NCBI GenBank assembly: GCA_020632395.1
Contig: JACKFQ010000001.1
Coordinates: 226,009-290,008, forward strand
Direction: 5' to 3'
DNA length: 64,000 nt
Source of the DNA: Candidatus Nomurabacteria bacterium
Lineage (GTDB): Bacteria > Patescibacteriota > Dojkabacteria > SC72 > JAHDCA01
Position numbers and translations under genes: made by a program. A model generated the notes under the pieces. That model searched no databases. It was not told the DNA's origin and was given only the letters and a program-made list of their open reading frames with translations. Positions within the stretch are counted from its first letter, which is position 1. Every line of letters begins with the position of its first letter. Of this stretch, positions 4,003 through 61,795 are shown one piece after another.

Positions 4003-4317
4003 TTATACAGATCTTCTCTTTGAGCCCGACATATTTTTAACTGTTCCGTGAACTTCTTTTTTACGCATGGCTGCGGCTGCTAATCCCATATCCGACTGAG
4101 GAACTTGCAAGACCTTCTGACTTGAGCGTCTATCTCCTAATCTCTGAGCCGCTTTCTCAAGAAGTTTTGGATTTCCACTTCTCTCAATTTCTGTTGCTCG
4201 AGATCCAGACTTTGTAACAGCATCTAGTCGTCTATTTCGAGATAAGGAGACCTCCTGTTTTCCCTCTTTACCTGCAGCCTTAGACTGGGCTCTTATGTGT
4301 GATTGTGTTTTAGACAT
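4003..4317 (-). CDS. small basic hypothetical protein
   Basis: 104-aa ORF, K/R/S-rich, no recognisable domain. Confidence 0.3.
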   Translation of the reverse strand: MSKTQSHIRAQSKAAGKEGKQEVSLSRNRRLDAVTKSGSRATEIERSGNPKLLEKAAQRLGDRRSSQKVLQVPQSDMGLAAAAMRKKEVHGTVKNMSGSKRRSV

Positions 4318-4456
4318 AAATGTAAATTGAAAAGTTATTAATTATTTTAGCAAACCTCAAATAGGAGTGCTAGTCCCGTTTAGAGTCAGTAGTATTTCTG
4401 TTCAAATACAGCCATTTCTGATATCCTTATAAAAGTAATTTTAGCGAGGAATTACA

Positions 4457-10147: not shown

Positions 10148-11227
10148 TTACTCCAGAATTTTAACTAATTTATTGAATCTATATGAGTTTACCTTCGTAG
10201 TATCACTTTTAGATAAAACTTTAACTTCTTCAAGATATTTCAAAATCCTTAAAGCAGTCATACGTTGGATTCCTGTTTCTTTTGTCATATCTGGTGAATT
10301 AAAAATAGGCATTGAGAATAGAAAATCCAAAACCTTGATTGCATTTTTCGGAGTAGGAATAGTTACAATTTCTTCTTTTAATGAATTATAAAGATTAAGC
10401 ACCTCCTCAACTTTCAAGATGTTCTTTTCAGACTGTTTAATTACTGCAACCAAGAAAAATAAGATCCAACTCTCCCAATCATTATCCTTGGTTATTGCTT
10501 TTAATCTTTGGTAATACTCATCACGATTGGTCTCAAAGTATTCACTAAGATAAAGCATAGGTTGTTTTAGAACCTTTTTATAATATAAAAATAATGGCAT
10601 TAATATCCTACCTGTACGACCATTACCGTCCCAGAATGGATGAATGATTTCAAACTGAGCGTGGATTATAGCAAGTTGTACAAGGTAATCCTTCTCATCA
10701 TAATGAATATATCTCTCAAAATCGGCAAAGAGATCTTCTATTTCATTCGCTTCTGGCGGAACATGACTTGCATGATCTAGTCCCAAAGCAGGGTTGCCAA
10801 TATATACTGGACCAGTTCTAAATTCACCTGGAGTTTTGTCACTACCACGGGCATCTTGCATCAGGACTTTATGATTCTCTTTGATGAGTCTAGCTGAGAG
10901 CGGTAACTCATCAAGTTTATCAATCGCCATGTTCATAGCTTTGCGGTAGTTTAAGACTTCTTGAATATCCTCATACTTATCAGTCTTTTTATTGGGGCTT
11001 GCTTCATACTTCAAAACATCTTCAAGAGAGGCTTGTGTCCCCTCAATCTTTGAAGACAATACAGCTTCTTTTGTGGTAAGAGGGGATAGAAGAATCCTTG
11101 CTTTTGGTATGCTTTGCATATAACCATCAAACTTTGCCACAGCTCTATTAGCCTCACCAATATGCTCAAGGAATTTATCCCAATCTAAATCTTTTATTGG
11201 TAATTTGTGTGGTTTGAATGGTTTCAT
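10148..11227 (-). CDS. fic: Fic/Doc-family protein (AMPylator-type) with internal inhibitory motif and C-terminal wHTH
   Basis: Canonical Fic motif HPFWDGNGRTGR; upstream SSKIEGT matches the (S/T)xxxE(G/N) inhibitory helix. Confidence 0.85.
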   Translation of the reverse strand: MKPFKPHKLPIKDLDWDKFLEHIGEANRAVAKFDGYMQSIPKARILLSPLTTKEAVLSSKIEGTQASLEDVLKYEASPNKKTDKYEDIQEVLNYRKAMNMAIDKLDELPLSARLIKENHKVLMQDARGSDKTPGEFRTGPVYIGNPALGLDHASHVPPEANEIEDLFADFERYIHYDEKDYLVQLAIIHAQFEIIHPFWDGNGRTGRILMPLFLYYKKVLKQPMLYLSEYFETNRDEYYQRLKAITKDNDWESWILFFLVAVIKQSEKNILKVEEVLNLYNSLKEEIVTIPTPKNAIKVLDFLFSMPIFNSPDMTKETGIQRMTALRILKYLEEVKVLSKSDTTKVNSYRFNKLVKILE

Positions 11228-17481: not shown

Positions 17482-19176
17482 ATGGGAAATGAAAGTTTCG
17501 GAGAGATCCGTAAGAAACAGGTTCGAAAGATCATTGCTCAATTCATTTTTGGACTAACTATCCTATTTGCTGTCGGGAGTTTTGCTTATAGAGCTACGCA
17601 AGATACACAATCGACCACTTCGACTACAGATACCTCCCAGAAAGATCCTGAACCCTCAGATGATAGTTTTGACTTAGTTTCTTCACAGGTATGCCTAGGA
17701 GAACTTCCTCCCGATCTGACAGATCTCCTTGAGAGGGAATTAAGCAATACACAACAACTCACTTCTGACGATAATTCTTGTACACTTATATTATCGTCAG
17801 GGATCGTGGATAGTAATCGATACAATTCCTTGTATCACAGGGTATACACTCTAGTATCCAGGGCTGACCAACCCATCCTGAACGTGACATGGGCTGACCT
17901 CAAGGATGGATTGAATAGAGGTAGCATAGACAAGTACAAGATCTATCTCACGGATGAAGCTTCATTTTTCATAGATGCAATGTATGGTACATCTACACGA
18001 GGTCTATCTAAAAATGTAACTGAACTGATAGACACAGTGCTCAATGATCCCAATACCTTGGCGATCTTGCCCATCGAGGAGCTACTACCCAAAGTCAAGA
18101 GTGTAGCTATCGATGGTATTACGCCATTTTCAGATGACCTATATGTATTCACATACCCTCTTTCTGGAACTATCTGGTCAACGATCCCAGATCAAGAACA
18201 ACAGGATCTATATATCAAAGTAGAGGGTTTAGTCGAAGAATACTTTGGCTCTAACTCATATGATCAGGAGAATGTTCGGAGTATCCTCCTTACGGGTAGG
18301 TCAGCTATTGGCAGTAGATCGTTATTTTCTAGTGAAAATTCGACTACTGATAATCTCTTCTCTAACATCACCACTATGATAAAGGATGCGGATATTTCTA
18401 TCCTAAACAATGAGAGTTCTTTCATTGAGAATTGCTCACAGTCACCTGAAACAAGGATCCTTTGTAGCCTACCTATAGAGCAATCACTTATCTCTGATAT
18501 TGGCTTTGATATAGTGGGCGTGTCTGGACAGAGTGTACTTGATGTCGGTAGACCTGCATTTGAAAGCACTCTTTCGGGGTATCTAGAACAAGACTTAGGC
18601 TACTACGGTGGAGGTATGGATCGTGAAGAAGCAAAAATAGGTGTCACAATAGAACAAGATAAGCTGAAAATGTTCCTCACAGGTTTTTCATTAGTAACCC
18701 CTACAAGATATCTTTCAACAGATAGATCATCAGGAACCTTAGCACCAGACAAGGTAGCAGGGGATGGGTACTATCTATCCGAAACTCTGTTAGATCGTCC
18801 ACAAGATGAGATCCAGATAGTGGATATGCAATGGGGATCAGATATTTCAAGCACGATCTCTGAGCAGGAGAAAAATTATGCTTTAAGACTTGTCGGTGCT
18901 GGTGCTGATCTGGTTTTTGGAACTAACTCAATTATTGTAAAACCTATGGAGTACATCGACAGTGTACCGGTATTTTATGGTTTAGGAGATTTTGCTTACC
19001 CACCGGACAAAGGGGTAGAGGGGAGATCTATCATGGTCAGATTATACCTATACAATGGGCAATTTCTAACTTACGAACTTATCCCCACTACTATTGATGA
19101 CTCAGGTATCATAGATATTGATATGGACAGCTACGGCGAAATATTGAATACTGTATATGAGAATACCAACTTCTAG
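17482..19176 (+). CDS. membrane-anchored CapA/PgsA-like (metallophosphatase-fold) protein
   Basis: N-terminal TM anchor. C-terminal ...GADLVFGTNSIIVKPMEYIDSVPVFYGLGDF resembles the CapA H-x-H...Y.SLGNF signature but with the His pair replaced. Confidence 0.45.
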   Translation: MGNESFGEIRKKQVRKIIAQFIFGLTILFAVGSFAYRATQDTQSTTSTTDTSQKDPEPSDDSFDLVSSQVCLGELPPDLTDLLERELSNTQQLTSDDNSCTLILSSGIVDSNRYNSLYHRVYTLVSRADQPILNVTWADLKDGLNRGSIDKYKIYLTDEASFFIDAMYGTSTRGLSKNVTELIDTVLNDPNTLAILPIEELLPKVKSVAIDGITPFSDDLYVFTYPLSGTIWSTIPDQEQQDLYIKVEGLVEEYFGSNSYDQENVRSILLTGRSAIGSRSLFSSENSTTDNLFSNITTMIKDADISILNNESSFIENCSQSPETRILCSLPIEQSLISDIGFDIVGVSGQSVLDVGRPAFESTLSGYLEQDLGYYGGGMDREEAKIGVTIEQDKLKMFLTGFSLVTPTRYLSTDRSSGTLAPDKVAGDGYYLSETLLDRPQDEIQIVDMQWGSDISSTISEQEKNYALRLVGAGADLVFGTNSIIVKPMEYIDSVPVFYGLGDFAYPPDKGVEGRSIMVRLYLYNGQFLTYELIPTTIDDSGIIDIDMDSYGEILNTVYENTNF

Positions 19177-30870: not shown

Positions 30871-33468
30871 ATGGTTTGTCAAAACTGTGGCTTAAGACCG
30901 GCAACAACTCAAATAACAACATCTCGTAATGGACAGGAGCAAACTATCCAATTGTGCTCTGCTTGTGCTTCGCAACTCCAGAGGGGTGGGATGTACGAGG
31001 GTTTCTTTGGGGACGGATCCTCTCCTGACAGATCTACAGGTGAACAGGTTGATATAACGCAATTCTTCTCCGAACGTGCAAAAGATGCAATACAATTAGC
31101 AGCAAATGAGGCTATCGAAAATGGGAATCGAAATATTGATACTGAGCATCTACTTCTAGCGATAATCCAGAGTGATGAGGTTGTAGGAAGGATCCTAAAG
31201 GAATTGAAGGTGGACAAAGGAATGCTCATGGACCAACTGAGATCACAATTTTCTATGGGTGAAGGCTCAACAACACCAGGACTCTCACCACGTGCAAAAC
31301 AAGCCCTTCAATATGCTTTTTCAGAAGCAATGGAATTAGGACATAACTATGTTGGTGGAGAACATATCTTTCTAGGTTTACTGAAAGAGGGTGAAGGTTT
31401 AGCTGCACAGATACTTACCAAATCAGGTATCGAGCATGTGACAGCCAGACAAGCAGTGCTCAAGATCGTTGGAGAAGGTGACGTGGAGGGGAAGAAAGCA
31501 GCTGAAAAGAGTGAAACTCCGACTTTGGATAAATTCAGTCGAGATCTTACACAATTGGCTAGGATCGGAAAGATCGATCCGGTGATCGGTCGCAGTGATG
31601 AGATCACAAGAGTAATTCAGATCCTTTCTCGCAGAAAAAAGAACAATCCAGTACTTATCGGAGAGCCGGGTGTAGGAAAAACTGCAATTGCAGAAGGTCT
31701 TGCCTATCGCATCTCAAAAGGCAATGTGCCAGAGATCCTTAAAGATCGTACTATCAAGGAATTGGATGTAGCATCTCTTGTAGCTGGTTCAAAATTCAGA
31801 GGAGAATTTGAAGAAAGAGCCAAAAAAATAATTGAAGAATTAAATGCCTCCGCCAGATCCATAATCTTATTCATAGATGAATTGCATACTATCGTAGGAT
31901 CAGGGGCACAAGAAGGTCAGATGGATCTATCAAACATGCTCAAACCCGCGTTGGCCCGTGGAGAGTTGCAGGTCATAGGAGCAACTACTTTAAATGAGTA
32001 CAAGAAATATATCGAAAAAGATGCTGCCCTAGAAAGACGTTTCCAACCAGTCCTCGTAAACGAACCAAGTATCGAACAAACAATTGAGATACTTAGGGGA
32101 TTGAGAGATAAGTATGAAGCGCATCACAAAGTAAAGATCGAACCCGAAGCTTTGGATTCTGCCGCAAACCTTTCATCCAGATACATCAAAGATCGTTTTC
32201 TTCCTGACAAAGCGATCGATCTGGTAGATGAAGCTGCAAGCAAGGTTAGACTCACAACATCAACAGAGCCTGAGGAACTTCGCGAGCTGAAAGACGAGAT
32301 AGAAAAAATGGAGAAGGAGCGTGAGTCTTTAAGTCGAGCTAATAAACATGAGGAAAGTGCGAAAGTAAAGATGCAGATCGAACAGGTCAGATCAGATAAA
32401 CTACAACCTCTTCTAGAAGAGTGGAATAAAGTAAAAGGCACGGGTACACCAAATGTCACTTCAGATGACATAATTACAGTAGTAGCTGCAATGACAGGAA
32501 TACCGCTTAATCAACTCCAAGAAGAGGAGAGAGATCGACTGATAAATCTAGAAGATGTACTTCACAAACGAGTTGTCGGCCAAGAAGATGCAGTCAAAGC
32601 TGTATCAGAAGCTGTCCGCAGAGCTAGGGTGGGTCTGAAAGATCCAAATAAACCCATAGCTACTTTTCTATTCCTAGGACCAACTGGGGTCGGAAAGACG
32701 CTACTGGCAAAAACCCTCGCAGAACAGATATTCGGCGATGAAGATGCGATAGTCCGTATAGATATGAGTGAATATATGGAAAAACATGCAGTTTCGAGAA
32801 TGATCGGTTCGCCTCCAGGATATGTCGGTTATGAAGAGGGTGGGCAGTTGACAGAAGCCGTTAGGAGAAAGCCTTTTTCTGTAATACTCCTTGATGAGAT
32901 AGAGAAAGCTCATCCTGATATCTTCAACACACTACTTCAACTTTTTGATGAAGGAAGGCTTACAGATTCTAAAGGTAGGACTGTAGATTTCAAGAATACA
33001 ATTATCATAGCAACTAGCAATCTAGGATCGGAAAAGATCATGGCATATATGGAATTACAAACAAAAGAGAAAAGCTGGGAATCACTCAAAGAACAGCTTA
33101 TGGAGGATCTTAAGAAAGCTTTCAAACCAGAATTCTTGAACAGACTAGACGACATCATACTATTCAAGAGTCTCGAACGAACACAACTGATAAATATAGT
33201 TAAGATCCTTTTAGAAGAGACAAAACAATTGATGAATGCACAAGATGTGGATATAGAGTTCGATGATACTATAGTGGATCATATCATCGAGCTAGGATAC
33301 GAGCCTGAGTTTGGTGCAAGACCACTAAAGAGAGTGATACAAAAGGAGATAGAAAATACCCTTGCCAACAAACTCTTAAATGGAGATCTTTCACCAGGTG
33401 AAAAGTATATCTTGAAGTACCGAGACACGAAGATCGTGATCACACAAAAGAAAAGCCAAAAGAAATGA
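30871..33468 (+). CDS. clpC: ClpC-type Clp/Hsp100 ATPase (two AAA+ modules, Clp_N repeats) with an extra N-terminal C4 zinc ribbon
   Basis: Two Walker A motifs ([18 protein letters not shown]), Clp_N repeats, short middle domain. N-terminal CQNCG...CSAC. Confidence 0.9.
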
Positions 33469-33563: not shown

Positions 33564-33740
33564 CTATTTCTCGGCAATGACGAGATTGACCTCAATGCCC
33601 TCATCACTTATGCGAGATATCTCTAATTCACTTCCACAAAAAGGACATTCGATGATATCTCCTACCTGATATTCCCTTGTTGTATCAAGGTCTATATCAT
33701 TCATACATTCTGGGCACGTTACTGTCTTTTTACCATCCAT
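33564..33740 (-). CDS. LysW/ArgW-like zinc-ribbon mini-protein (amino-group carrier protein family) lacking the canonical C-terminal EDWGE tail
   Basis: 58 aa, translated manually: MDGKKTVTCPECMNDIDLDTTREYQVGDIIECPFCGSELEISRISDEGIEVNLVIAEK. TCPEC...hh.ECPxCGxELEI mirrors LysW. Confidence 0.5.
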   Translation of the reverse strand: MDGKKTVTCPECMNDIDLDTTREYQVGDIIECPFCGSELEISRISDEGIEVNLVIAEK

Positions 33741-33818
33741 TCTGTAATCCTACTAATTTATGTAGAATAGTAATGTATTATATCATGTAGAAGGACTTGA
33801 ACTCATATTTTTTTAGAG

Positions 33819-34730
33819 ATGGGAGATATTATGAAAACCTACACTCCAATTACACGAATATTCATCGACGAGTTACCAGTAGTTATCAAACGTGAGGATC
33901 TTAATGAAACTGGATCACAAAAAGATCGTGGAGTACCAGTGCAGATCGATCATCACATCAAAGATGGCAAAACCCGATTTGTTATATCAAGTTCAGGAAA
34001 TTCTGCTATCAGTGCGATCAACAGATTAATAAATACAGAGTATCACCTCACAGTCTTCTTGAGTAAAAATATCAGCACATCTAAACTACTGCGGATCTCC
34101 TTAATATTAAAGAAAAACATTACACAAGAAGATACTACTATCCAAAATATCGAACTGAAGTTCACTGAAAGACCCGTATCTGATGCATTCAAATATGCTA
34201 ATTCATCTGAGAGCGTTTTACTTAGAGGCTCTATAGATCCTTATGCAACGATAGGGTACCAAGCGATCACACATGAACTAGCAGAACAAAGTCCCGGATC
34301 AACAGATATATTCATACCCACTTCTAGTGGTACAACTTTGGTAGGAATATTCAACGGTTATGAAGACTTAAAGGATAAAGACCCAAATATTTTGATCCCG
34401 AGATTTCATGTGTGCCAAACAACAGCCGTCAACACGATTGCCAGAGATTTTGATACCTCATTTCAACCTACCAAAAATTCAATTGCAGAAAGCATTGTCG
34501 ATAGGGTGGCTAAACGATATCACCAAGTCAGTGATATAATAAAGAGTACTACAGGTTCTGGATGGGTCTTAACAGATGCTGAGATCAGGAAAGCTGTGCA
34601 ACTCCAAAAAGATCTTGGTTTAGAATTATCTAATGAATCAGCACTAGCACTTGCAGGGATGTTAAGAGCAATGCGAAGCTCAAAATATAATATGGATCAA
34701 CCAATAGTATTATCAACAGGAGTGAAATGA
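33819..34730 (+). CDS. fold-type II PLP-dependent enzyme (Trp-synthase beta / threonine synthase / cysteine synthase superfamily)
   Basis: KREDLNETGSQKDRG matches the PLP-lysine motif (..NPTGSFKDRG) of this superfamily. The stop overlaps the next gene's start (ATGA). Confidence 0.65.
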   Translation: MGDIMKTYTPITRIFIDELPVVIKREDLNETGSQKDRGVPVQIDHHIKDGKTRFVISSSGNSAISAINRLINTEYHLTVFLSKNISTSKLLRISLILKKNITQEDTTIQNIELKFTERPVSDAFKYANSSESVLLRGSIDPYATIGYQAITHELAEQSPGSTDIFIPTSSGTTLVGIFNGYEDLKDKDPNILIPRFHVCQTTAVNTIARDFDTSFQPTKNSIAESIVDRVAKRYHQVSDIIKSTTGSGWVLTDAEIRKAVQLQKDLGLELSNESALALAGMLRAMRSSKYNMDQPIVLSTGVK

Positions 34731-36145
34731 GTTTATACGACCCAATCTTTTATATAACTAATGATAGCGAACGAGCCATCGGACTCGAGGAGATTGTAGA
34801 TCTTCATATACTGGCCATAGACGACAGTTGGCTTGCACGTCAGATACACAACAAGACCCACAAGGTATTTATCCTTGAGCGAGAGATAGGTATTCTTAAT
34901 CCTATTTTCCGAAATTCCAATAAACTACTTCAAGAACCACTCACACAAGAGTATATTGATCATCATTCGCAAGATATCCGTCAAGGAATGGTGTTTAAGA
35001 TCGCTCCTAATATTGAAAGAACTGCACAAGCGCTAGGTATACAACTCCTCAATACAACCTCACAACAGAATCAACGTTTCGAAAACAAGATCCCACAACT
35101 AGAATTCCTCAAAGAATTAGACAATATCCCACTACCCAAAAGTGAGATCTATCTCTTGGGAGATACTGATCACCAGAAGCTAATTTCTGAATTCTCGGAT
35201 CCTTACGTCATACAGTTCGATCGAGGACATACAGGGACAGGAACATTATTTATCAGATCTGAAGATGAGCTTGAAGACCTGAAGAGTGCGTTCCCCAAGC
35301 GACCAGTAAGGATATCCCAATACATAGAAGGCGAAGCCTGGACACTCAATGCTGTTTCTACAAGATGGGGGACTCATTACGGTGGTTTATCGTATCAGAT
35401 AACAGGGGTCGAGCCACTCACAAGAGTCTCAGGGGCAACTGTCGGAAACGATTGGAGTAGAGCGCATTCTCTTCCAGATAATACGATCTCCCAGATTGCA
35501 ATGATCACTAAAAAGGTTGGTGACGGGTTATTTGAAGAAGGGTTTAGAGGTTTATTCGGATTGGACCTGATAGTTGACGACAAAGGGAAAGCATTTCTGA
35601 TAGAGATAAATGCACGACAGCCAGCCTCTACAGGGATGCACACCAAACTTATGTTAAAAAACCAACAGATACCGTTGCAACTATTACATATCGCTGAATT
35701 CTTAGGTTTGACCGATAGTGAGCTGATTCAGTATATGACCGATCGATCAAGACCAGCTCATAGCCTAACCAAACTACAAGACCAGCTAAGCGAGCAGGAC
35801 CGATCACTTGGTAGGGATATAAATGCGTCACAGTGTATATTGAGAAATAGTGCAAGTGGAAATATTACTATAGCAGGAGATCTAGGCTCAGGGATCTACG
35901 ATCGAACAGATAGAGATTTATCTGAACAGGCAATTGATGATCGATATAGTATCGATCACTTGGATGAAGACGAGTTCCTCCTCATAACTGCTACTGAAGG
36001 AAGGATCGTCACACCTGGTACCGAGTACGCTCGGATCCAAACGTATGGAAGTGTCCTAGATAACAGTGGTAAACTCTTACCAGTACTAGTAGATATTATC
36101 AATAAGTTAAAAGGGAGTACCCATGAGGAGGCTACAACTACCTGA
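34727..36145 (+). CDS. ATP-grasp superfamily ligase
   Basis: Central ATP-grasp core with LFGLDLIVDDKGKAFLIEINARQPAS (E-x-N metal site) and a glycine-rich loop FDRGHTGTGTLF. Overlaps both neighbours. Confidence 0.6.
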   Translation: MSLYDPIFYITNDSERAIGLEEIVDLHILAIDDSWLARQIHNKTHKVFILEREIGILNPIFRNSNKLLQEPLTQEYIDHHSQDIRQGMVFKIAPNIERTAQALGIQLLNTTSQQNQRFENKIPQLEFLKELDNIPLPKSEIYLLGDTDHQKLISEFSDPYVIQFDRGHTGTGTLFIRSEDELEDLKSAFPKRPVRISQYIEGEAWTLNAVSTRWGTHYGGLSYQITGVEPLTRVSGATVGNDWSRAHSLPDNTISQIAMITKKVGDGLFEEGFRGLFGLDLIVDDKGKAFLIEINARQPASTGMHTKLMLKNQQIPLQLLHIAEFLGLTDSELIQYMTDRSRPAHSLTKLQDQLSEQDRSLGRDINASQCILRNSASGNITIAGDLGSGIYDRTDRDLSEQAIDDRYSIDHLDEDEFLLITATEGRIVTPGTEYARIQTYGSVLDNSGKLLPVLVDIINKLKGSTHEEATTT

Positions 36146-36902
36146 ACCGGCTTGGAAAGTCGTACAAGGTTATATGAAGCTAAAATTTAACGGTACAGTT
36201 GTTCGAACTCCTTACTATCGAAATGTCGAGAGGGTACGTGCAGAACTTCGCTCACTTATTGGTAAAGGTACTCCTGAAGAGATTGTCGAAGATGTCCTTA
36301 TCTTTTCAAAATTGAGGGGCTTCAATCTCCGTCGAGCAACACCTGACGAGATACGACGCTTCATGGAGAAAGAAGGTATCGGTATAGATTGTTCGGGATT
36401 TGTAGCACATGTGTATGACGGATGGCTTAGGGCTGTAAATAAAGGAAGTATAAGATCAAATCTTCTCTGGCCAAAACGCACTCTTTACAGAAAGGTTATA
36501 ACCATCCTAAGACCTATCGAGAACATCAGCTCAGAACTTCTCACAGGAGAATTGAATTGTACCACTATCGAGATCGAAGACACCCTCCCTGGCGATCTGA
36601 TAAGATTGAAGGGTGCTAAACAGGGTGATCATGTTGTACTGATAAGTACGGTCACACTTGAGGAAGACGGTACTCCCAGAGAGATCGATTATGTACACTC
36701 ATCACCACACTATGGTAATGATAATGGTGTAAAGAAAGGAAAGATCAGGATCACAAATCCCGATAGGGGATTAGAGTATCAGGAATGGTTGGAAAAAGAC
36801 CCCAATGGCCGCTGCATCACAAAAGACGGTTATCTAAGGGAACTTAGCGATAATAGGTTGGTTCGGCCTAATTTTATGGAAAAGATCAAATGGGGACAGT
36901 AA
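36123..36902 (+). CDS. cytoplasmic NlpC/P60 (CHAP-like papain-fold) cysteine amidase/peptidase
   Basis: GIDCSGFVAHVY (catalytic Cys), downstream GDHVVLI and HSSPH (His pair); no signal peptide. Confidence 0.55.
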   Translation: MRRLQLPEPAWKVVQGYMKLKFNGTVVRTPYYRNVERVRAELRSLIGKGTPEEIVEDVLIFSKLRGFNLRRATPDEIRRFMEKEGIGIDCSGFVAHVYDGWLRAVNKGSIRSNLLWPKRTLYRKVITILRPIENISSELLTGELNCTTIEIEDTLPGDLIRLKGAKQGDHVVLISTVTLEEDGTPREIDYVHSSPHYGNDNGVKKGKIRITNPDRGLEYQEWLEKDPNGRCITKDGYLRELSDNRLVRPNFMEKIKWGQ

Positions 36903-37981
36903 CCGGATGGATCTTACTATCTTTCTTGCTCACATTCGGATTAGCACCGATCATCATACATATCCTCTATCGATACAGGATCGTACGAAAAACTGATACT
37001 GATTTCTCGGCGATAGTAGGAGAACGATATCTTAAAGCAGGTACACCGATCATGGGAGGTCTGATGATGATCATCAGCATCTTGTTACTTACTATCATAT
37101 TCAATTGGCATGGGAGCACAGTAGTACCGATAGTTGTACTAATAATTTCAGCATTGTTAGGTGGATTTGATGATGTGATGAATATCTACGGTAGGAAGAG
37201 AGTTATCAGAACTGTAGATAAGCAGATCAAATTAGCGAAAGTACACAAACATCTTTCCAAAAGGATCTTTTATTGGATCACACTGCCTTGGGCTGCATAT
37301 AAGAATATCTGGTTTGCACTAGGGTCATACCCAGGAAATGGTATACACGCTGGTGAAAAGATCCTTATACAATTATTTGTGGGTTGCTTAGTTGCTTGGT
37401 GGATATTTTTCAGATTAGGATGGAGCGTTCTTTGGATCCCTGTCATTGGAGAATTTGATATAGGCATACTAATGCCTTTGGTAGTAATCGGTCTCGTGAT
37501 GATCATGACAAATGCAGTCAATATCTCCGATGGTATGGATGGCTTAGCCAGTGGAATGTTGGTACCTAGTTTTATAGCCTATCTCCTCATCGCAATACAG
37601 CAGGAACAGCACGAGATAGCGATCCTTTGCGCAATTACGATAGGAGCCTTACTCGCCTATATATACTTCAACATCAAACCAGCACGAGTTGAGATGGGCG
37701 ATGTCGGAACTCTAGCTTTAGGAGCTTTGCTTGCAACGGTAGCTCTTGCCCTTAGACGAGAATTCTTACTTCCGATAATTGGTGGGCTGTTCTTCATAGA
37801 GATCGGCTCCTCATTATTGCAGGGAGTGTATCGCAAGATCGTCGGAAGAAGGCTTTTAAAGATGGCACCACTGCACTTACACTTGCAGGTACGAGGATGG
37901 TCAGAAGAAAAGACTGTGATGAGATTTTGGTTGTTCTCAGTGATATTTGCGATTTTAGGTCTCTGGATCTCACAATTCTAA
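36890..37981 (+). CDS. MraY/WecA-family polyprenyl-phosphate sugar-1-phosphate transferase (paralog; degenerate HHH motif)
   Basis: 10-11 TM protein; NAVNISDGMDGLASG (DDxxD-type motif), C-terminal MAPLHLHLQVRGW. Confidence 0.7.
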   Translation: MGTVTGWILLSFLLTFGLAPIIIHILYRYRIVRKTDTDFSAIVGERYLKAGTPIMGGLMMIISILLLTIIFNWHGSTVVPIVVLIISALLGGFDDVMNIYGRKRVIRTVDKQIKLAKVHKHLSKRIFYWITLPWAAYKNIWFALGSYPGNGIHAGEKILIQLFVGCLVAWWIFFRLGWSVLWIPVIGEFDIGILMPLVVIGLVMIMTNAVNISDGMDGLASGMLVPSFIAYLLIAIQQEQHEIAILCAITIGALLAYIYFNIKPARVEMGDVGTLALGALLATVALALRREFLLPIIGGLFFIEIGSSLLQGVYRKIVGRRLLKMAPLHLHLQVRGWSEEKTVMRFWLFSVIFAILGLWISQF

Positions 37982-39081: not shown

Positions 39082-40312
39082 GCGAATTATAGTAATTAGT
39101 TAATTCTAAAATGATCCTATCGGCATCTGAGGGTGAGATATTAGCATGCAAGGGTAGGTTGATAATATCCCTACACAGATCCTCAGCATTCGGACACGAC
39201 CCTTCATCATACATCGTGATATATGGAGAGAAAGTTGCAGGAGCTACCGGATTCCAATACCAATCCCCAAGAAGAATATTTTGTTCTTTCATATACTTCA
39301 TCAAACCCGTTCTATCTTTGACACGAAGAGCCATTCGCAAAGGTACCACATCTGGATTTTCTTCAACAATAGTGATATTTCGGTCTTCACCCAATGCTTT
39401 GATGAACTTCTGAAACAGCAAAGCTCGATATGACTGTATCTCTGAGATATCTTCTAGTTGACCCATTGCGATCTCGGCTAGAGCCCCTGGAAGTTTTGTT
39501 GGTATATGCTTCGGTCTCTCACCCTGTTTCTCTTCTTTAGTCGTTGCCCTCGAGATCAACCCACTTTTTGTATAGATCAGATGAAGAACTTTTCCAAAGC
39601 CAGAAACATACGTTGATTTTATAGTTCTCCATAGTATCGGGAAAAGTATCCTCTTGAACACCCAGCTAGAACCAGGGTAGTGAAGTGAAAGATATCTTGT
39701 ATTTAGTGTTGATGCAACATCCAGTTCAGGATCAAATACCATCACACCCCCGTCAACACCAGAAACTACTTTATCTCTTCCGAGGCTATATATGATCACA
39801 TCAGTTTCTGGTAATACCTCACTATTTGATGTGGGTATAAAATGGGTCGAATCTAGGATAAGTAGTATGCCTCTCTGCTTGCAGATCTCCCTCACTTTCT
39901 CATAGCTAGGTACACTCCCAAGAGTCACCTGGACTACAACAGCTACTGTTTGTGGGTCGATCCCAGCGATGATAGTATCCTCAGCTGGGACCAATTTACC
40001 TTTTTGGATATCTATATATCTGGGTGTCAATCCTGCCCATACGGCAGGTAATGACGCTGCAGCACAAGTAAATCCTTGATATACGACATTTCCATTTGGT
40101 TTACTTATGCTACTGAGTAGTTCGAATAAAGCTGATCTAGCATGACTATATGTCAAAACTGTCTTTCCAGGATGTAATTTCAAGAAGTGATCATTGACAC
40201 GAGATATCGATCCAGTATCAAACCATCGTCTAGGGGATAGTAGTAGACGATAGTTCAAGTTTAGATCTTTCGGACGGGTATTTGGAGAATATGAGCTATA
40301 TATCAATTTCAT
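39074..40312 (-). CDS. DegT/DnrJ/EryC1/StrS-family PLP aminotransferase-like protein
   Basis: Fold pattern of sugar aminotransferases (..VIIYSLGRDKVVSGVDGGVMVF..) with a Lys in the expected Schiff-base region. Confidence 0.45.
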   Translation of the reverse strand: MKLIYSSYSPNTRPKDLNLNYRLLLSPRRWFDTGSISRVNDHFLKLHPGKTVLTYSHARSALFELLSSISKPNGNVVYQGFTCAAASLPAVWAGLTPRYIDIQKGKLVPAEDTIIAGIDPQTVAVVVQVTLGSVPSYEKVREICKQRGILLILDSTHFIPTSNSEVLPETDVIIYSLGRDKVVSGVDGGVMVFDPELDVASTLNTRYLSLHYPGSSWVFKRILFPILWRTIKSTYVSGFGKVLHLIYTKSGLISRATTKEEKQGERPKHIPTKLPGALAEIAMGQLEDISEIQSYRALLFQKFIKALGEDRNITIVEENPDVVPLRMALRVKDRTGLMKYMKEQNILLGDWYWNPVAPATFSPYITMYDEGSCPNAEDLCRDIINLPLHANISPSDADRIILELTNYYNSHV

Positions 40313-41733
40313 TTTCTACAATGATGAGATAAATCCTGCATAACTTTGGGTGAGAAACGACCTTCCAACAAGAAAACATCTTTTTCTGTACCACTACAGA
40401 TCTTTTCGTGTACACTTTTTTCATCTACAAGTTCTGAGATCTCATCCCCTGCGATTTTGTGAAGTACAGGATCAGTTGTGATCAGATGAATATTTAATTC
40501 TCGTAGAACACTTACTATACGTTCATACGATGTTTCCAAAGTATCACCTAATTCTAACAATCCCCTTGTAATTGCGGTTCTATTCGTCTGGGAGAATTCA
40601 GAGATATAATGCAAGGCCGCAATAAATCCTTCCACGCTAGAATTATAGCTGTCATCTATCAGGATCGAACCATTATCCAATTCTCTACGAGAAAGCTTCT
40701 GTGATATTGGCTTTAGATGTTTTAATGCTTCTACTATCTGCTTCTCATCCAAGCCCAGATCGATCGCACATGCTAAAGCACCTGTTAGATTAAGAATACT
40801 ATGGTTTCCGGGAAGAACTGTGTTCAAGGATAGATTTAGATTCTTGTATGCAAAGTGGAATGAACCGTTTCCTGTCGGTTGTGAATAAGCATCTGCCTTG
40901 GGATTTGTGATCGAATAAGTGATAACAGTACAGTGAGCAGCTTTGGTCATGACCTCGTAACCGTCGCAATCCATGTTCAAATACAGTTTTCCATCCTTTG
41001 GTAGAGCAGAAGGGAGTTCAGATTTAGCTTTCAATAATGCCTCACGAGATCCAAAAATATCTACATGCTGATTTCCGAGACCAGTGACAAATCCTATCCT
41101 TGGTGGAGTGATGTTTGCTGATCGCGTGATCGTTCCAACGGTATATGCTGCCATCTCACTTATAAAATACTGTGTGTCTGGACGGATCTCGTTGAGAAAT
41201 GACATAGCTACACCAACTTCCGAGTTGTAATTCTTTTTGGTCGATGCCACCTTATATTTTTCTGACAGTAGCCGGTGAAGGATGACCTTCATAGAGCTTT
41301 TCCCATATGAACCAGTAACTCCTATCACAACGGCGTCAGAATCTTTTGCCATCTGCTCGGCTCGTTTGATGATCCTACCTCTTTTATATAGTGCAAGAGG
41401 CTCTGTCAGCAACACACCCAAAAACACCACAACCTTAGATGCCAGAAAACCTAAACCCCAAAATAGTGTATAAGAAAGATCTATCTCCTGAAATCTCAAA
41501 GCCGTCCACCCAAAATAAGCAACCATGATCAAAAAAACAAATCCTGTTATCAGAATATTACGCAAAGATCTTGCAGGCATTTTGAGCGGGATCCAAAACC
41601 CTCGATTATCTTTAATTCCGCTCAGTATTCTAGGTAAAAAATACTCCTTGATCTGAAATTGATAGAGAGTGGGTAGAGAAAAGAATGTAGACACGATCAA
41701 ACCTATTAGTGAGAAGAAGATTGTCATGATCAA
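40309..41733 (-). CDS. murF: Mur ligase, MurF-like, with N-terminal multi-TM membrane anchor
   Basis: VIGVTGSYGKSS P-loop and Mur ligase middle/C domains, preceded by ~110 aa containing 3-4 TM helices. Confidence 0.7.
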   Translation of the reverse strand: MIMTIFFSLIGLIVSTFFSLPTLYQFQIKEYFLPRILSGIKDNRGFWIPLKMPARSLRNILITGFVFLIMVAYFGWTALRFQEIDLSYTLFWGLGFLASKVVVFLGVLLTEPLALYKRGRIIKRAEQMAKDSDAVVIGVTGSYGKSSMKVILHRLLSEKYKVASTKKNYNSEVGVAMSFLNEIRPDTQYFISEMAAYTVGTITRSANITPPRIGFVTGLGNQHVDIFGSREALLKAKSELPSALPKDGKLYLNMDCDGYEVMTKAAHCTVITYSITNPKADAYSQPTGNGSFHFAYKNLNLSLNTVLPGNHSILNLTGALACAIDLGLDEKQIVEALKHLKPISQKLSRRELDNGSILIDDSYNSSVEGFIAALHYISEFSQTNRTAITRGLLELGDTLETSYERIVSVLRELNIHLITTDPVLHKIAGDEISELVDEKSVHEKICSGTEKDVFLLEGRFSPKVMQDLSHHCRK

Positions 41734-42485
41734 CTTTCCTTCAAAAAGTGAATTATATCGTTTGCCACCTCAACTGGTTCTGCTATCGGGAGATTATGTG
41801 TCATATTCTCATAAATTTTCATCTTGGAGTCTGTGATCTTCTCATTTAGATATTTCCCTTCTGCAATAGGAGTTGATAGATCATGCCTCCCCCACAATAT
41901 CAATGTCGGCAAGTGTACAGAACGTAAGATCGGCCTGAGATCCTTCTTAAGGATCTTTCTGTAGATCGATTCTAGATGGAGATATTTCAATGAATCCGAT
42001 CGTCTGTGAAAAAGTTTGTAATATAGTCTTCTCACAGGGAGGAGATAATCTCTCAGGTGATCATAGAAAGGCACGAACTTCGTGAGCTTTCCCAATCCTG
42101 AAACTTTCGGTTCCCGATAATAAGAAGCTGCTATAAGCACAAGCTTCTCAAATAGAGCAGGGTGGTTGGCAGCCAAATATATACCGATCCCCCCTCCAAA
42201 AGAGTGACCTATATAAACAAGTTTATTCAGCTTCAACTGCCTAATGAACTGCAATACCGTTTCAGGATACTGTTCTGCTTCCCAATTCATGGGGGGGTTC
42301 TGACTTTCTCCAAACCCAGGGAGATCTAATAAATAGACTTTCCGTGTTTTTGCTAATTCTCTGGCTAAAGCATCCAGACTTTGTTTGTTTCCACCCCATC
42401 CATGTACAAGTATGGTCGGGTCTCCACTCCCATAGGTCACATACGAGATCTTCAGTTCGTTTACTTTAATATTCATTGATATCAA
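41730..42485 (-). CDS. alpha/beta-hydrolase fold protein
   Basis: GHSFGG nucleophile elbow (GxSxG), LVHGWGG oxyanion region, C-terminal His. Confidence 0.7.
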   Translation of the reverse strand: MISMNIKVNELKISYVTYGSGDPTILVHGWGGNKQSLDALARELAKTRKVYLLDLPGFGESQNPPMNWEAEQYPETVLQFIRQLKLNKLVYIGHSFGGGIGIYLAANHPALFEKLVLIAASYYREPKVSGLGKLTKFVPFYDHLRDYLLPVRRLYYKLFHRRSDSLKYLHLESIYRKILKKDLRPILRSVHLPTLILWGRHDLSTPIAEGKYLNEKITDSKMKIYENMTHNLPIAEPVEVANDIIHFLKES

Positions 42486-42579: not shown

Positions 42580-43875
42580 TTGAACTATAACAACGTGAAC
42601 AGAATCAAACAGATGATCCCTCAGAACATTAAGAATTATTACCATAAGGTCATGATAAGGCTTTACAACATCTACTATGATGACCCATCATCCAAACTCG
42701 CAGTGATCGGTGTTACCGGAACTGATGGTAAAACGACGACTTGTACATTGATCTACGAGATCCTAAAAGGAGCTGGATACAAAGTAGGTTTGATCACAAC
42801 CATCAGCGCTAGGATCGGTGAAGAATCAATACCCACCGGCTTTCATGTGACCACTCCAGATCCCCAAGTACTTCTCAACCTCATGAAAAGGATGATAGAT
42901 GCTGGAATGGAGTATGTAGTCCTAGAAACCACATCACATGGACTTGATCAAAATCGTGTTAGTACGATCAAGTTTCATGCAGGGATCTTCACTAACGTAA
43001 CACATGAACATCTAGACTATCACAAAACATATGAGGCTTACCTCAATACGAAAGCCACACTTATTCATCTGATCAAACCGGGTGGATTCGTGGTGATCAA
43101 TCTGGATGACAAATCAAGCGAGGTCTTATGTAAGAAAGCTTCTGATCATAAATTAAAAACCTATACATACGGCTTCACTGAAAAAGCAGATCTGTTCGCA
43201 ACTGATTATGAAGATACCACCACAACTACAAAATTTAATGTTCATAATGGGGATCAAACGTTTCCTGTCGAAATGCATCTACCCGGAGAATACAATGTCT
43301 ACAATGCTCTTGGTGCTATACAGGTTGGTCTTGAACTCGGTATATCCCAAGATGTTGTTGCAAGAGCACTGTCAGATGTTAAGACTCTAGAGGGGAGATG
43401 GGAAGTATTGCAAAAGGAGCCATACAAAGTGGTTGTAGACTTCGCACATACACCAAATGCCTTAGAAAAGATGTTAGAGTACGCACGACAGGATAATCCC
43501 ACAGGAAGATTAATTGTTGTTTTTGGTACTGCAGGTAAGCGTGATATTGAGAAGAGACCTCAGATGGGAAGGATCGCAGGGAATCTAGCCGATCTCGTGA
43601 TCCTAACCGCAGAGGACCCAAGAGGAGAAAATATTATCAATATAAACAGACAGATCGCTGTTGGTCTTGCAGAAGTAGGTAAGATAGAGGAGAAAGATTA
43701 TTTCAGCATAACTGATAGACGTAAAGCAATTGCTCGAGCTATGAAACTTGCTAAACCCGGTGACACAGTAGTGATCACAGGAAAAGGACACGAGAAGAGT
43801 ATGAATATCGATGGTGTTAACGAGATCCCTTGGAGTGACCAGATGGTTGTAAAAGAATTAATTACAAACGGATGA
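42580..43875 (+). CDS. murE: Mur ligase, MurE-like (UDP-MurNAc-L-Ala-D-Glu:diamino acid ligase)
   Basis: VIGVTGTDGKTTT P-loop. C-terminal domain has EDPRGE in place of the DAP-specific DNPR motif. Confidence 0.7.
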   Translation: MNYNNVNRIKQMIPQNIKNYYHKVMIRLYNIYYDDPSSKLAVIGVTGTDGKTTTCTLIYEILKGAGYKVGLITTISARIGEESIPTGFHVTTPDPQVLLNLMKRMIDAGMEYVVLETTSHGLDQNRVSTIKFHAGIFTNVTHEHLDYHKTYEAYLNTKATLIHLIKPGGFVVINLDDKSSEVLCKKASDHKLKTYTYGFTEKADLFATDYEDTTTTTKFNVHNGDQTFPVEMHLPGEYNVYNALGAIQVGLELGISQDVVARALSDVKTLEGRWEVLQKEPYKVVVDFAHTPNALEKMLEYARQDNPTGRLIVVFGTAGKRDIEKRPQMGRIAGNLADLVILTAEDPRGENIININRQIAVGLAEVGKIEEKDYFSITDRRKAIARAMKLAKPGDTVVITGKGHEKSMNIDGVNEIPWSDQMVVKELITNG

Positions 43876-43881
43876 GAACAA

Positions 43882-44640
43882 ATGAAGTACATATTTTCAG
43901 AATTCACCGCTACTTATAGCCAATACGAATTTCCTTATCAGATCTATGTATTTAGAGAGGAAAGTGACAAATTAGAGGATATATATTCAAAAGGAGCACT
44001 TCCTACGCGTATTGACGCCAGGTTGTTCTATGTAGCCCGAGGTGTACGAGTAGATCTTACAAAATTCTCCCCAAATAGTGAAAATCGCAGAATTGCCAGA
44101 AAGACATCCAACTTGCAACTCAAGATTGTTCCTCTCGATATGTTCGATTATCAACCACATATCGGTAAGTTAGCAAAAGACTTTTACGATACAAAATTCG
44201 GAAAAGGTACTCTCTCCGCTCAAAAGGTAAAATGGCTCTTTCGATCTGGTGCATACTCCCATGTGATAGTCTATAAGGATATCCAACAGAACAGTATCAT
44301 TGGGTACTGTATAGTAAATCTCACGGATAACATAATGCATTATGCATATCCTTTCTATCGATTAGAACTTATCAATACAAATACAGGCATAGGTATGATG
44401 ACAAGTGCCATTATGAATGCTTCAGGAAGTGATCTTGATCTTGTATATCTTGGGACATGCTATGACCAGAGAGCTAAATATAAACTACAGTTCAAAGGTA
44501 TAGAATACTTTAATGGGTGGGAGTGGTCTGAGGATATCGATGCTTTAAAGTCATTACTAAATTCCAAACATGATTCTCATCTATTATCGACACCAGGTAA
44601 ACGTACCAATTTAATTGAACATCTGACAGGAACGCCATGA
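43882..44640 (+). CDS. Bpt/ATE_C-like (arginyl/leucyl-tRNA-protein transferase C-domain, GNAT-fold) protein
   Basis: ...SIIGYCIVNLTDNIMHYAYPFY...VYLGTCYDQRAKYKLQFKGIEYFNGWEW resembles the ATE_C signature YLGYwI...M.YK..F.P.E.l..W. Confidence 0.4.
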   Translation: MKYIFSEFTATYSQYEFPYQIYVFREESDKLEDIYSKGALPTRIDARLFYVARGVRVDLTKFSPNSENRRIARKTSNLQLKIVPLDMFDYQPHIGKLAKDFYDTKFGKGTLSAQKVKWLFRSGAYSHVIVYKDIQQNSIIGYCIVNLTDNIMHYAYPFYRLELINTNTGIGMMTSAIMNASGSDLDLVYLGTCYDQRAKYKLQFKGIEYFNGWEWSEDIDALKSLLNSKHDSHLLSTPGKRTNLIEHLTGTP

Positions 44641-50562: not shown

Positions 50563-51591
50563 ATGAACGATGCTCTCATACAAACATTTCATTCACTTTT
50601 TATTGCATTTGTAATTTCTATACTTTTTGCACCTTTAATGATCCGCTACCTTTACAGATTCAACCAGGTAGCCGCACATAAAAAAACTAAGCTTGGTGGT
50701 GGTATTGAGGAAGACAACACTCTCTACCTTCGGATAATGAATGTATCTGGTAAGAATGGGATACCTAACATGGGAGGGATCATGGTCTGGGTAGTAGTTC
50801 CATTTACGATCCTCCTCACATTAGACTTGACTCCTCTTATTGTTGTATTGATCTGGTCTTTTGTTCTCTTTGGTGCATGGGGATTCCTTGATGTATTGTT
50901 CACGAATATGATCAAGAACAATCCCGACCTTAAGACTATTCAAGAACGATTTGGTGTGCGTTTATTACGCTTCTCTATAGCAGTCCTTATCAATATTGTG
51001 ATCACATATATGCTATGGAATAGTGGTGTACTCAAAGATCTATCACTAGGTATGATCTCAATATCATTCTCCCTGGTGATGGTGCCTGTACTGGCTATCC
51101 TAGGTCAATTCGCAATATATGCATCTGAACTGACCGATGGACTAGATGGATTGATGATCGGGATATTCGGGATAATCTATACAGCATTAGGATCAATGTT
51201 GCTGATCCAGGGGAAATATGAGCTTCTTCCCGTAATTGGGATCATCATTGGAGTGATACTTGTCGACCTATATTTCAATATCAACCCTGCAAGATTTTAC
51301 AACGGTGGCCCTAGCGCTATGCCTCTAGGTCTAGTTGCTTTTCTGATAGGATTAGCAACAAACAATCTAATACCGTATTTTGTTGCTTCTTCTATAACAT
51401 GGGTAATACTGGCATCTAGCATGATACAGATAATCAGTATGAGATTCTTTAAGCGGAGAGTTTTCAAAATGGCACCGTTACATCACCATTTCCAAACCAT
51501 CGGTTGGCCAGAGACAAAGGTCACTATGCGATTCTGGTTGGTAACGATGGTTTTTTCTGTTATCGGGATATATCTATCGATAGTACTATAA
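50563..51591 (+). CDS. mraY: phospho-N-acetylmuramoyl-pentapeptide transferase MraY
   Basis: ASELTDGLDGLMIG and intact C-terminal MAPLHHHFQTIGW motif. Confidence 0.8.
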   Translation: MNDALIQTFHSLFIAFVISILFAPLMIRYLYRFNQVAAHKKTKLGGGIEEDNTLYLRIMNVSGKNGIPNMGGIMVWVVVPFTILLTLDLTPLIVVLIWSFVLFGAWGFLDVLFTNMIKNNPDLKTIQERFGVRLLRFSIAVLINIVITYMLWNSGVLKDLSLGMISISFSLVMVPVLAILGQFAIYASELTDGLDGLMIGIFGIIYTALGSMLLIQGKYELLPVIGIIIGVILVDLYFNINPARFYNGGPSAMPLGLVAFLIGLATNNLIPYFVASSITWVILASSMIQIISMRFFKRRVFKMAPLHHHFQTIGWPETKVTMRFWLVTMVFSVIGIYLSIVL

Positions 51592-60967: not shown

Positions 60968-61795
60968 TTAATAATTAAAGTATACATCAGCAGGAGTTCT
61001 CTTCTCAAGTGAGCTATGTCTCCTCTGATGGTTGTAGAACAAAAAGTACTTCTCTAGTCGATCTCGAGCTTCGTTTCCGTCAGCATAATCATACAGGTAC
61101 ACTTCCTCATATTTCACAGTTCTCCACAACCTCTCGATGAAGATATTGTCAAATGCCCGACCCCTCCCATCCATGCTGATCTTTACACTGTAAATTTTCA
61201 GAAGATCCGTGTACTCCTGACTGGTATACTGGCTTCCCTGATCTGTATTCGAAATCTGTGGCCGGCCTTGGTTTAAAGCCTCCTGTAGAACACTGACACA
61301 ACCTGACTTATGCATTGTATTTGTCAATTTCCAGCTGATTACATATCTTGAATACCAATCCATTTCGGCTATCAGATACAAGAATCCATGTCGCATTCTG
61401 ATGTACGTAATGTCACTGCACCAGACCTGATTTGGTTTCGTTATCTCAAGATCTTTGAGCAAGTACGGATATTTCTGGTCAACCTCATTGAATTTGCTGA
61501 GATTCTTTTTGGGCACTACTGCCGATATGCCCAACAGATTCATCAGTCGTAGAACCTTCTTGTGATTCACATCGTCTCCTGTGGTATTAAGTTCGTCCGT
61601 AATTGGTCTATACCCGTAAAAGGGTCTTTTTGTGTAGATCTCATCGATTCGATTAAGTAGGTATTGGTCATATTCACTGACTTCTACTGGTTTGTAGTAG
61701 TAAGTACTTTTGTTCAACTGTAAAAGAGCTATTTGATCCTTTTTCGTCAGTACACTATTTTTTTCTACAAGTCGTCGTTTCTCCTCATTCGTCAA
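60968..61795 (-). CDS. IS3-family transposase OrfB (DDE integrase core, rve domain)
   Basis: WCSDITYI...D...HSDQGSQYTS...E catalytic DDE spacing typical of IS3. Confidence 0.85.
   Translation of the reverse strand: MTNEEKRRLVEKNSVLTKKDQIALLQLNKSTYYYKPVEVSEYDQYLLNRIDEIYTKRPFYGYRPITDELNTTGDDVNHKKVLRLMNLLGISAVVPKKNLSKFNEVDQKYPYLLKDLEITKPNQVWCSDITYIRMRHGFLYLIAEMDWYSRYVISWKLTNTMHKSGCVSVLQEALNQGRPQISNTDQGSQYTSQEYTDLLKIYSVKISMDGRGRAFDNIFIERLWRTVKYEEVYLYDYADGNEARDRLEKYFLFYNHQRRHSSLEKRTPADVYFNY

Follow-up and report, generated by a model that had tools for sequence, protein, structure and literature searches.

A LysW-like zinc-ribbon protein with a C-terminal lysine and its enzyme partners in a patescibacterial cell-wall gene cluster

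A gene on the minus strand at positions 33564..33740 of the window (the whole stretch of 64,000 nucleotides that was analysed) encodes a Cys4 zinc-ribbon protein of the LysW fold that ends in lysine, a trait that it shares with its relatives encoded next to the same type of PLP enzyme. Together with the genes for this PLP enzyme, an ATP-grasp ligase and an NlpC/P60-fold enzyme it forms a module that is probably an undescribed carrier-protein pathway feeding cell-wall synthesis in Patescibacteria. The protein is quite likely a carrier or scaffold that serves these enzymes in cell-wall precursor metabolism, with the terminal lysine as its reactive handle.

The ribbon protein and its terminal lysine

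The product of the ribbon gene (MDGKKTVTCPECMNDIDLDTTREYQVGDIIECPFCGSELEISRISDEGIEVNLVIAEK) has 58 amino acids, a pI of 4.05 and the C-terminus ...VIAEK. It matches the Pfam family Zn_ribbon_LysW (PF21344) with 39.2 bits at a gathering threshold of 27 (E 5.6e-10), and the solved structures that are matched best by the profile of its family are LysW proteins (5k2m_E, E 3e-8; 3wwl_A; 3vpb_E). When the family was aligned by hhalign to LysW sequences with the classical EDWGE tail (probability 99.3%, E 8e-21, 52 columns), the lysine-ended tail proved to be shorter than that of LysW by about 4-5 residues. The four cysteines (C9, C12, C32 and C35) are unchanged in all 64 relatives that were compared. 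The preliminary description of this DNA had recognized a LysW-family ribbon without the EDWGE tail, and the Pfam match above threshold, the alignment with the LysW families and the differing C-terminus bear this out. Its further point, that such a protein, if it is a carrier, must work by a chemistry different from that of LysW/ArgW, also holds.

Scores with the curated LysW models are below the cut-offs (24.3 versus 53.2 for TIGR01206 lysW, and 31.8 versus 75 for NF041070 LysW/ArgW). The protein is outside the LysW/ArgW group, as the EDWGE tail, the equivalog models, the LysX-type ligase and the genes of the lysine pathway all fail; genes of the LysZ, LysY, LysJ and LysK types were found neither among the open reading frames of the window in a Pfam/NCBIfam scan nor in the gene tables of the related loci. 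Some lysine-ended relatives bear the name "lysine biosynthesis protein LysW" at NCBI and JGI, and other homologues are unnamed or have generic names. For lysine-ended ribbons, this database name is a systematic mis-annotation.

The open reading frame is closed by the tandem stop codons TAG TAA, an EDWGE-like extension was sought in all three frames downstream of the stop and was not present, and the last 46 residues of the protein are identical on 24 independent contigs (P0001). The ending ...VIAEK is thus not a sequencing artefact, given the tandem stops and the common C-terminus on 24 contigs, and the possibility raised earlier, that an error at the stop conceals an unannotated in-frame extension, can be dismissed. 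A second lineage (L062) has the tail ...LEAEK, which resembles that of the window.

The terminal lysine is conserved far beyond these two sequences. All 12 close homologues, with lengths of 51-61 amino acids, end in ...(I/V)EEEK. When 1.84 billion representatives were searched with a profile, 344 matched, and among the best 150 of these, which include about 145 short proteins, 96 of the short proteins have a terminal lysine; the lysine-ended tails in this set comprise 49 EEEK and 17 DEGK, and others including TTYK, IKGK and SLDK. The classical DWGE/DWGQ tails rank lower in the list of profile matches than the lysine-ended ones. Every complete ribbon gene that adjoins a gene for the PLP enzyme (a member of the Pfam family PALP) encodes a C-terminal lysine (37 of 37). 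The endings found in the family are EEEK, DEGK, EEYK, LEAEK, TTYK, IKGK, SLDK and VVDK, and the residue before the lysine can be E, G, Y, D, S or H, among others. The penultimate glutamate is variable. The terminal lysine is invariant and is thus the feature under selection. Fusions of the ribbon with the PLP enzyme were sought among the long profile matches and none was found; these long matches are multi-ribbon repeat proteins.

The gene string, its enzymes and their linkage

The ribbon gene is separated by a divergent intergenic region of 78 bp (33741..33818) from a string of genes on the plus strand that overlap throughout. The string consists of the genes for the PLP enzyme of fold-type II (33819..34730, 303 aa), the ATP-grasp ligase (34727..36145, 472 aa), the NlpC/P60-fold cysteine amidase/peptidase (36123..36902, 259 aa) and, as its last member, the phospho-MurNAc-pentapeptide transferase MraY (36890..37981), which places the module in a peptidoglycan context. 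The start of the ATP-grasp gene overlaps the stop of the PLP-enzyme gene by 4 nt; the NlpC/P60 gene shares 23 nt with the ATP-grasp gene and 13 nt with mraY. Direct reading of the intergenic sequence reveals, for the minus-strand ribbon gene, a Shine-Dalgarno-like AGGA at 33748-33751 ahead of the ATG and an extended -10 element, TGATATAAT, at 33777-33785; a simple sigma-70 scan did not return a site with two hexamers.

Genes for FtsW, MurG and ClpC lie upstream of the string, and FemAB, DegT, a divergent MurF-like ligase, MurE, MurC, MurB, MurA, a second MraY-family protein, MraW and a PBP are also encoded around it. The region is the cell-wall (dcw) cluster of a patescibacterium. Its MurE carries the DAP-type motif ...EDPR..., which implies a residue with a distal carboxylate at position 3 of the peptide. 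A murD gene was not found among the open reading frames of the window. Replacement of MurD by the module, which had been suggested by this result and by the position of the module between mraY and ftsW in one related locus (L023), was weakened by a MurD-like gene near the module in another (L037).

The PLP enzyme matches Pfam PALP with 101.6 bits, and its family has kept both the Schiff-base lysine K35 (in GSQKDR) and the SSSGN loop. It is closest to threonine synthases and remains below their equivalog cut-offs (best score 88 versus 358). When the family profile was compared with solved structures, threonine synthase came first (E 3e-26), followed by serine dehydratases and, at E values of 1e-17 to 1e-11, by serine/aspartate racemases, SbnA (E 1.6e-14) and cysteine synthases. 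The phosphate site of threonine synthase has been remodelled: in an alignment to 2zsj that was read by eye, N-S-x-N-P-x-R is replaced by L-R-G-S-x-D-x-x-A, so that the phosphate-site Asn has become Gly and the Arg has become Ala, and a new, family-specific conserved Arg (in the LRGS motif) is found two residues upstream.

The ligase matches Pfam ATP-grasp_3 (32.4 versus 23.2), and the invariant residues E293, N295 and R297 form its E-x-N-x-R Mg/ATP motif. An AF2 model (pLDDT 92.9) has as its Foldseek neighbours PurD, L-amino-acid ligases (3vot, BacD) and biotin carboxylase (E 1e-17 to 1e-14), and also PurK and PurT. In the LysW/ArgW systems, the terminal glutamate of EDWGE is the attachment site, and EDWGE is recognized by the GSWGR motif of LysX/ArgX (PMC10433800). 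A GSWGR-like motif was looked for in the ATP-grasp enzyme of the window and is absent, and the score with the rimK_fam model is 25.8 versus a cut-off of 143.4; the enzyme is not of the RimK/LysX group. Its identification as Ddl was also considered and was abandoned, as no Ddl-family match was obtained at E<1.

The NlpC/P60 enzyme (pI 9.25) is cytoplasmic and has no signal peptide. It has a papain-like NlpC/P60 fold with a Cys-His pair, of which C90 and H170 are invariant, and its relatives are gamma-D-Glu-diamino-acid endopeptidases. The NLPC_P60 score of 19.2 bits is below the gathering threshold of 23, and the enzyme is thus placed with the fold, as one of its divergent members, and not with the Pfam family; a few of its homologues carry PF00877 or PF12671. 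Four natural proteins of 718-739 aa are fusions of the ATP-grasp and NlpC/P60 enzymes.

Related loci were gathered by homologue look-ups, by scanning genomes (Saccharibacteria, Dojkabacteria, Shapirobacteria and others) and by searching metagenomes with the PLP enzyme, and were annotated locally. The ribbon gene is the immediate, divergent neighbour of the PLP-enzyme gene in 39 of 44 non-redundant PALP loci, mostly at a distance of less than 250 bp, and the five loci without a ribbon gene have a flank of <260 bp. An NlpC/P60-like gene is present in every related locus with a long enough contig. The ATP-grasp gene was found in every locus with an acidic tail and enough flank, sometimes 4-5 kb away within the same Mur/MraY cluster (L019, L037, L050-52, L059). 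The gene order differs in L017, which argues that the linkage is functional and not merely inherited. In Saccharibacteria loci, a small gene for a TM protein and a methyltransferase was examined as a possible lysine methyltransferase and was rejected, because its matches were to generic class-I enzymes and Methyltransf_16 was below threshold.

A three-gene form of the module, composed of the ribbon, PALP and NlpC/P60 genes, adjoins rpoB and L25 (L039/L043, L040, L041 and L042). The ribbon tails in this form are IKGK, TTYK, SLDK and VVDK; none of the four contains Glu, and they are called non-acidic. No ATP-grasp gene lies within 8-10 kb of these loci, and a ligase could be encoded elsewhere in the genomes. 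The ATP-grasp enzyme goes together with tails that contain Glu and with dcw/Mur clusters; the correlation between tail and ligase is not phylogenetically independent, because the four ligase-free loci, all beside rpoB, represent one syntenic lineage. The preliminary description had named the ATP-grasp enzyme as the partner of the ribbon; this has to be revised, as the partner encoded next to the ribbon throughout is the PLP enzyme, and the ATP-grasp enzyme is missing from four loci.

A proposed mechanism and its rivals

Taking as established the homology, the invariant lysine, the linkage, the enzyme folds, the catalytic residues and the fusion, we infer a covalent chemistry at Lys58, the directions of the reactions and the identity of the product. 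A PLP enzyme can activate a molecule only if the alpha-amino group of that molecule is free. The end of the ribbon offers two groups, the epsilon-amine and the alpha-carboxylate of the lysine; the peptide bond of the carrier would protect the alpha-amine and leave the epsilon-amine as the free amine. The protection would follow the logic of LysW-gamma-Lys, with the difference that the lysine would be genome-encoded and the carrier "pre-loaded". From serine, or from an activated ester of serine or homoserine, the PLP enzyme would make an intermediate of the aminoacrylate or aminocrotonate type, and attack of the lysine epsilon-amine on the PLP-bound intermediate would generate a carrier-bound diamino-dicarboxylic amino acid. 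Precedents for this step are SbnA, in which the nucleophile is an amine, and CysM/CysO/Mec+, in which a carrier protein is the nucleophile and a peptidase releases the product. The NlpC/P60 enzyme would then clip the modified C-terminal residue off the carrier; its relatives cut X-|-diamino-acid bonds, that is, before a C-terminal diamino acid. The released product would enter peptidoglycan precursor synthesis. The occurrence of the three-gene form without a nearby ligase favours this simplest scheme, in which the encoded lysine is itself the substrate and loading does not depend on a ligase.

The ATP-grasp enzyme might then act like TTL/RimK and put a fresh lysine onto the acidic tail uncovered by the clipping, which would make the carrier catalytic. 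Such reloading would be of use where the flux must be high, for example in a cell-wall cluster, and would make an "exchange" enzyme of the ligase-hydrolase fusion. The full cycle of alkylation of the encoded lysine by the PLP enzyme, clipping by the peptidase and reloading by the ATP-grasp enzyme is put forward tentatively, with somewhat less than an even chance of being correct. Its most specific version, in which the PLP enzyme builds a lysinoalanine-type diaminopimelate surrogate on the lysine, the NlpC/P60 enzyme frees it for MurE and the ATP-grasp enzyme reloads the carrier, is rather unlikely; if true, the ribbon would be the first amino-group carrier protein found to be "pre-loaded", and patescibacterial peptidoglycan would contain a building block not known before. 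We know of no report of a lysinoalanine-type residue in peptidoglycan.

Two observations on the enzymes touch on single steps of the cycle. The RimK/LysX/TTL type, the members of which activate the C-terminus of a protein, is not the one to which the fold of the ATP-grasp enzyme comes closest, and this counts against reloading. The closest relative of the PLP enzyme, threonine synthase, normally uses water as the nucleophile, and racemases and dehydratases also resemble the enzyme, which counts against alkylation.

The carrier might also operate in the inverse sense and carry a carboxyl group: the ATP-grasp enzyme would ligate the carboxylate of an amino acid, most likely that of a Glu or Asp side chain, to the epsilon-amine of Lys58, the PLP enzyme would edit the free head, for example by L-to-D epimerization, and the NlpC/P60 enzyme would hydrolyse the isopeptide, which would yield D-Glu, D-Asp or another edited amino acid for peptidoglycan and regenerate the carrier. 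The ligase step favours this alternative, because the ATP-grasp fold is nearest to activators of small acids (PurD, PurT, biotin carboxylase and L-amino-acid ligases), which pass the activated acid to an amine on a larger partner, and acylation of a lysine epsilon-amine by ATP-grasp enzymes has precedents in PylC and the D-aspartate ligase Aslfm. A tether through the carboxyl group would leave the alpha-amine free, as the PLP enzyme needs, the solved relatives of that enzyme include serine and aspartate racemases, the peptidase is related to gamma-D-Glu-diamino-acid endopeptidases, and the ligase-amidase fusion and the cell-wall context both fit. However, loading would be unexplained in the three-gene loci, the tightest and universal linkage is that of the carrier with the PLP enzyme and not with the ligase, and it is not evident why a single editing step should need a carrier; we regard an inverse carrier as unlikely. 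Less probable still is a non-covalent role, in which the ribbon docks on the PLP enzyme with its C-terminal residue in the active site and acts as an activator, inhibitor or assembly adaptor. The immediate, divergent pairing of the two genes and the strict conservation of a C-terminal residue with a free carboxylate, which could be bound by the conserved Arg in the remodelled anion site of the PLP enzyme, would be in line with docking, and serine acetyltransferase (CysE) inserts its C-terminal Ile into CysK in the cysteine synthase complex. Docking would leave unexplained why an intact NlpC/P60 hydrolase is always present, why ligase and hydrolase are fused and why the ATP-grasp enzyme correlates with acidic tails, and in the family to which the ribbon is homologous, covalent carriage is the one role known.

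That the protein is an ordinary LysW/ArgW carrier for lysine or arginine biosynthesis, loaded at the gamma-carboxyl of the penultimate or a nearby glutamate, is very improbable, although the LysW-like Pfam match, the database names and the glutamates in most tails could be read in this way. The NCBIfam scores far below the cut-offs, the lack of EDWGE and of a terminal glutamate, the ATP-grasp enzyme without GSWGR and with its low rimK_fam score, and the absence of LysZ/LysY/LysJ/LysK-type genes from the open reading frames of the window all argue against it; in addition, the tails of four relatives are devoid of Glu, and an N-acylated amino acid could not be used by the PLP enzyme. An artefact, that is, a LysW gene truncated by a sequencing error or a premature stop, or a chance open reading frame, could be suspected in view of the mere 58 codons in a low-GC genome, but its probability is negligible given the tandem stops, the lack of an alternative frame with a LysW tail, the identical sequence on 24 contigs, the dozens of homologues of the same length that end in lysine, the invariant Cys4 and the ...LEAEK tail of the second lineage. 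A covalent handle at the encoded lysine is the reading that we prefer.

Comparison with known systems

The systems most similar to the module are those of LysW/ArgW with LysX/ArgX. They have in common with it a small acidic protein with a Cys4 zinc-ribbon fold and a functional C-terminus, an ATP-grasp ligase and a releasing hydrolase encoded alongside, and the protection of an alpha-amino group on a protein. In contrast to LysW/ArgW, the ribbon of the module ends in Lys and not in the Glu of EDWGE, on a shorter tail, and its ligase is PurD/Lal/BC-like and devoid of GSWGR, whereas that of LysW/ArgW is RimK/LysX-like. Its partners are a threonine-synthase-like PLP enzyme and an NlpC/P60 enzyme, without the kinase, reductase and aminotransferase of LysW/ArgW, and its context is peptidoglycan synthesis instead of Lys/Arg synthesis.

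In the CysO-CysM-Mec+ system, which makes protein-bound cysteine in Mycobacterium, and in related ThiS-like systems, the C-terminus of a small carrier serves as the nucleophile for a PLP enzyme of fold-type II, as proposed here; a dedicated peptidase sets the new amino acid free, and preparation of the carrier falls to an enzyme that uses ATP. The components differ: the carrier is a zinc ribbon in the module and a beta-grasp protein in the case of CysO, the nucleophile a lysine amine (as proposed) versus a thiocarboxylate, the peptidase NlpC/P60 versus JAMM, and the activator an ATP-grasp enzyme versus an E1-like adenylase. SbnA, the N-(2-amino-2-carboxyethyl)-glutamate synthase, is likewise a fold-type II enzyme and adds an amine nucleophile to an aminoacrylate derived from O-phosphoserine, but it uses free glutamate, whereas the PLP enzyme of the module would use protein-bound lysine and is closer to threonine synthases.

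The ATP-grasp-NlpC/P60 fusion resembles glutathionylspermidine synthetase/amidase, in which an ATP-grasp-like ligase and an amidase of the NlpC/P60 clan (CHAP) act on one amide, and TTL and RimK attach an amino acid to the acidic C-terminal end of a protein, as the ligase of the module is proposed to do; domain order and families differ from those of the module in these cases. Its peptidase has about 20% identity over about 120 residues with YkfC, a cytoplasmic gamma-D-Glu-L-Lys endopeptidase, and unlike YkfC it begins with an additional domain of about 85 residues, and its substrate is presumably a protein tail and not a muropeptide.

In the literature searched, which was mostly outside subscription journals, no description of lysine-ended LysW homologues, of the four-gene module or of CPR wall chemistry was found. 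Most of amino-acid biosynthesis is missing from Patescibacteria/CPR, and the chemistry of their walls is essentially uncharacterized; the module thus offers a testable handle on the way in which they obtain a building block of the wall. A demonstration of lysine-based attachment, or of a new amino acid in the wall, would bring the discovery close to a categorically new one. To our knowledge, every amino-group carrier protein described so far ends in glutamate and belongs to lysine or arginine biosynthesis or to one of a few pathways of secondary metabolism, and a widespread lysine-ended sister family with a different set of enzymes would carry the carrier-protein principle to a new chemistry.

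Variants of the module and its neighbours

Directly downstream of the gene for the Lys-ended, LysW-fold zinc ribbon, and on the opposite strand, lies ClpC (30871-33468, plus strand), which carries a zinc-finger-like N-terminal CxxC...CxxC motif (MVCQNCG...CSAC), and this neighbourhood is kept in the related loci L001, L002, L006 and L007. The PLP enzyme of the window (33819-34730, plus strand) has an N-terminus that is about 20-25 residues shorter than in its homologues, which start with MGIW.Y...EGNTP; the longer form has no room in the window because the intergenic space is 78 bp.

In several homologous proteins (P0167, P0173, P0176 and P0182; 718-739 aa), encoded by Dojkabacteria and relatives, the ATP-grasp ligase and the NlpC/P60-like hydrolase are naturally joined in a single polypeptide. 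In Saccharibacteria loci (L012, L014, L015, L018, L021 and L022), the PLP enzyme is separated from the ATP-grasp by a gene of about 175 aa (for example, L015:8443-8982, minus strand), the product of which combines an N-terminal transmembrane helix with a class-I SAM methyltransferase; it gave generic methyltransferase matches only, with the lysine-methyltransferase family remaining below threshold.

There is also a form of the module that consists of three genes, that is, the Lys-ended ribbon, the PLP enzyme and the NlpC/P60-like gene (L039/L043, L040, L041 and L042; for example, L040:938-2954). In these loci, the ribbon tails are non-acidic (IKGK, TTYK, SLDK and VVDK), the module adjoins rpoB/rpoC and the gene for ribosomal protein L25 rather than lying in a cell-wall cluster, and no ATP-grasp was found within 8-10 kb.

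Cell-wall genes of the window

Two MraY-family (Glycos_transf_4) genes are present in the window, at 36890-37981 and 50563-51591. The second scores 116 bits on the mraY model against a cut-off of 192, and therefore it may be a WecA-like paralogue. A divergent MurF-like ligase (40309-41733, minus strand) reaches 200 bits versus a cut-off of 288.6, and in its relatives the central Mur-ligase domain alone is recognised. Its gene shares a 4-nt overlap with an alpha/beta-hydrolase gene (41730-42485, minus strand), and the pair is kept in L001, L004 and L007.

MurE (42580-43875, plus strand) is short, at 431 aa, and lacks the usual N-terminal domain, given that its match to the models begins only at about position 60-95. 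It contains the DAP-type Arg motif (...TAEDPRGE...), and diaminopimelate synthesis is not expected of this organism. Between MurE and MurC lies the gene for a 252-aa protein (43882-44640, plus strand), which occupies the same place in L018, L019, L021-L023 and L037. The protein weakly resembles arginyl-tRNA-protein transferase (ATE_C) or Fem-like transferases, and it may act on the stem peptide as a tRNA-dependent transferase.

Elsewhere, this bacterial window holds both a CarS-like gene of the CDP-archaeol synthase family (63097-63720, minus strand) and a PGA_cap gene (poly-gamma-glutamate capsule, CapA-like; 17482-19176, plus strand; 564 aa), as well as mobile or defence-type genes (2596-6133, 10148-11227 and 60968-61795), namely, a DUF4143 AAA ATPase, a GmrSD-like restriction enzyme, a Fic/DOC protein and an rve-family integrase.

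Long forms and database names of the ribbon family

In the homologues P0029, P0075 and P0044 (103-113 aa), the ribbon domain is tandemly duplicated or N-terminally extended, and the C-terminus of these long forms is still EEEK or QEGK. Other Lys-ended members (P0405, P0035, P0115 and P0134) are labelled 'lysine biosynthesis protein LysW' by NCBI and JGI, which is likely to be a systematic mis-annotation.
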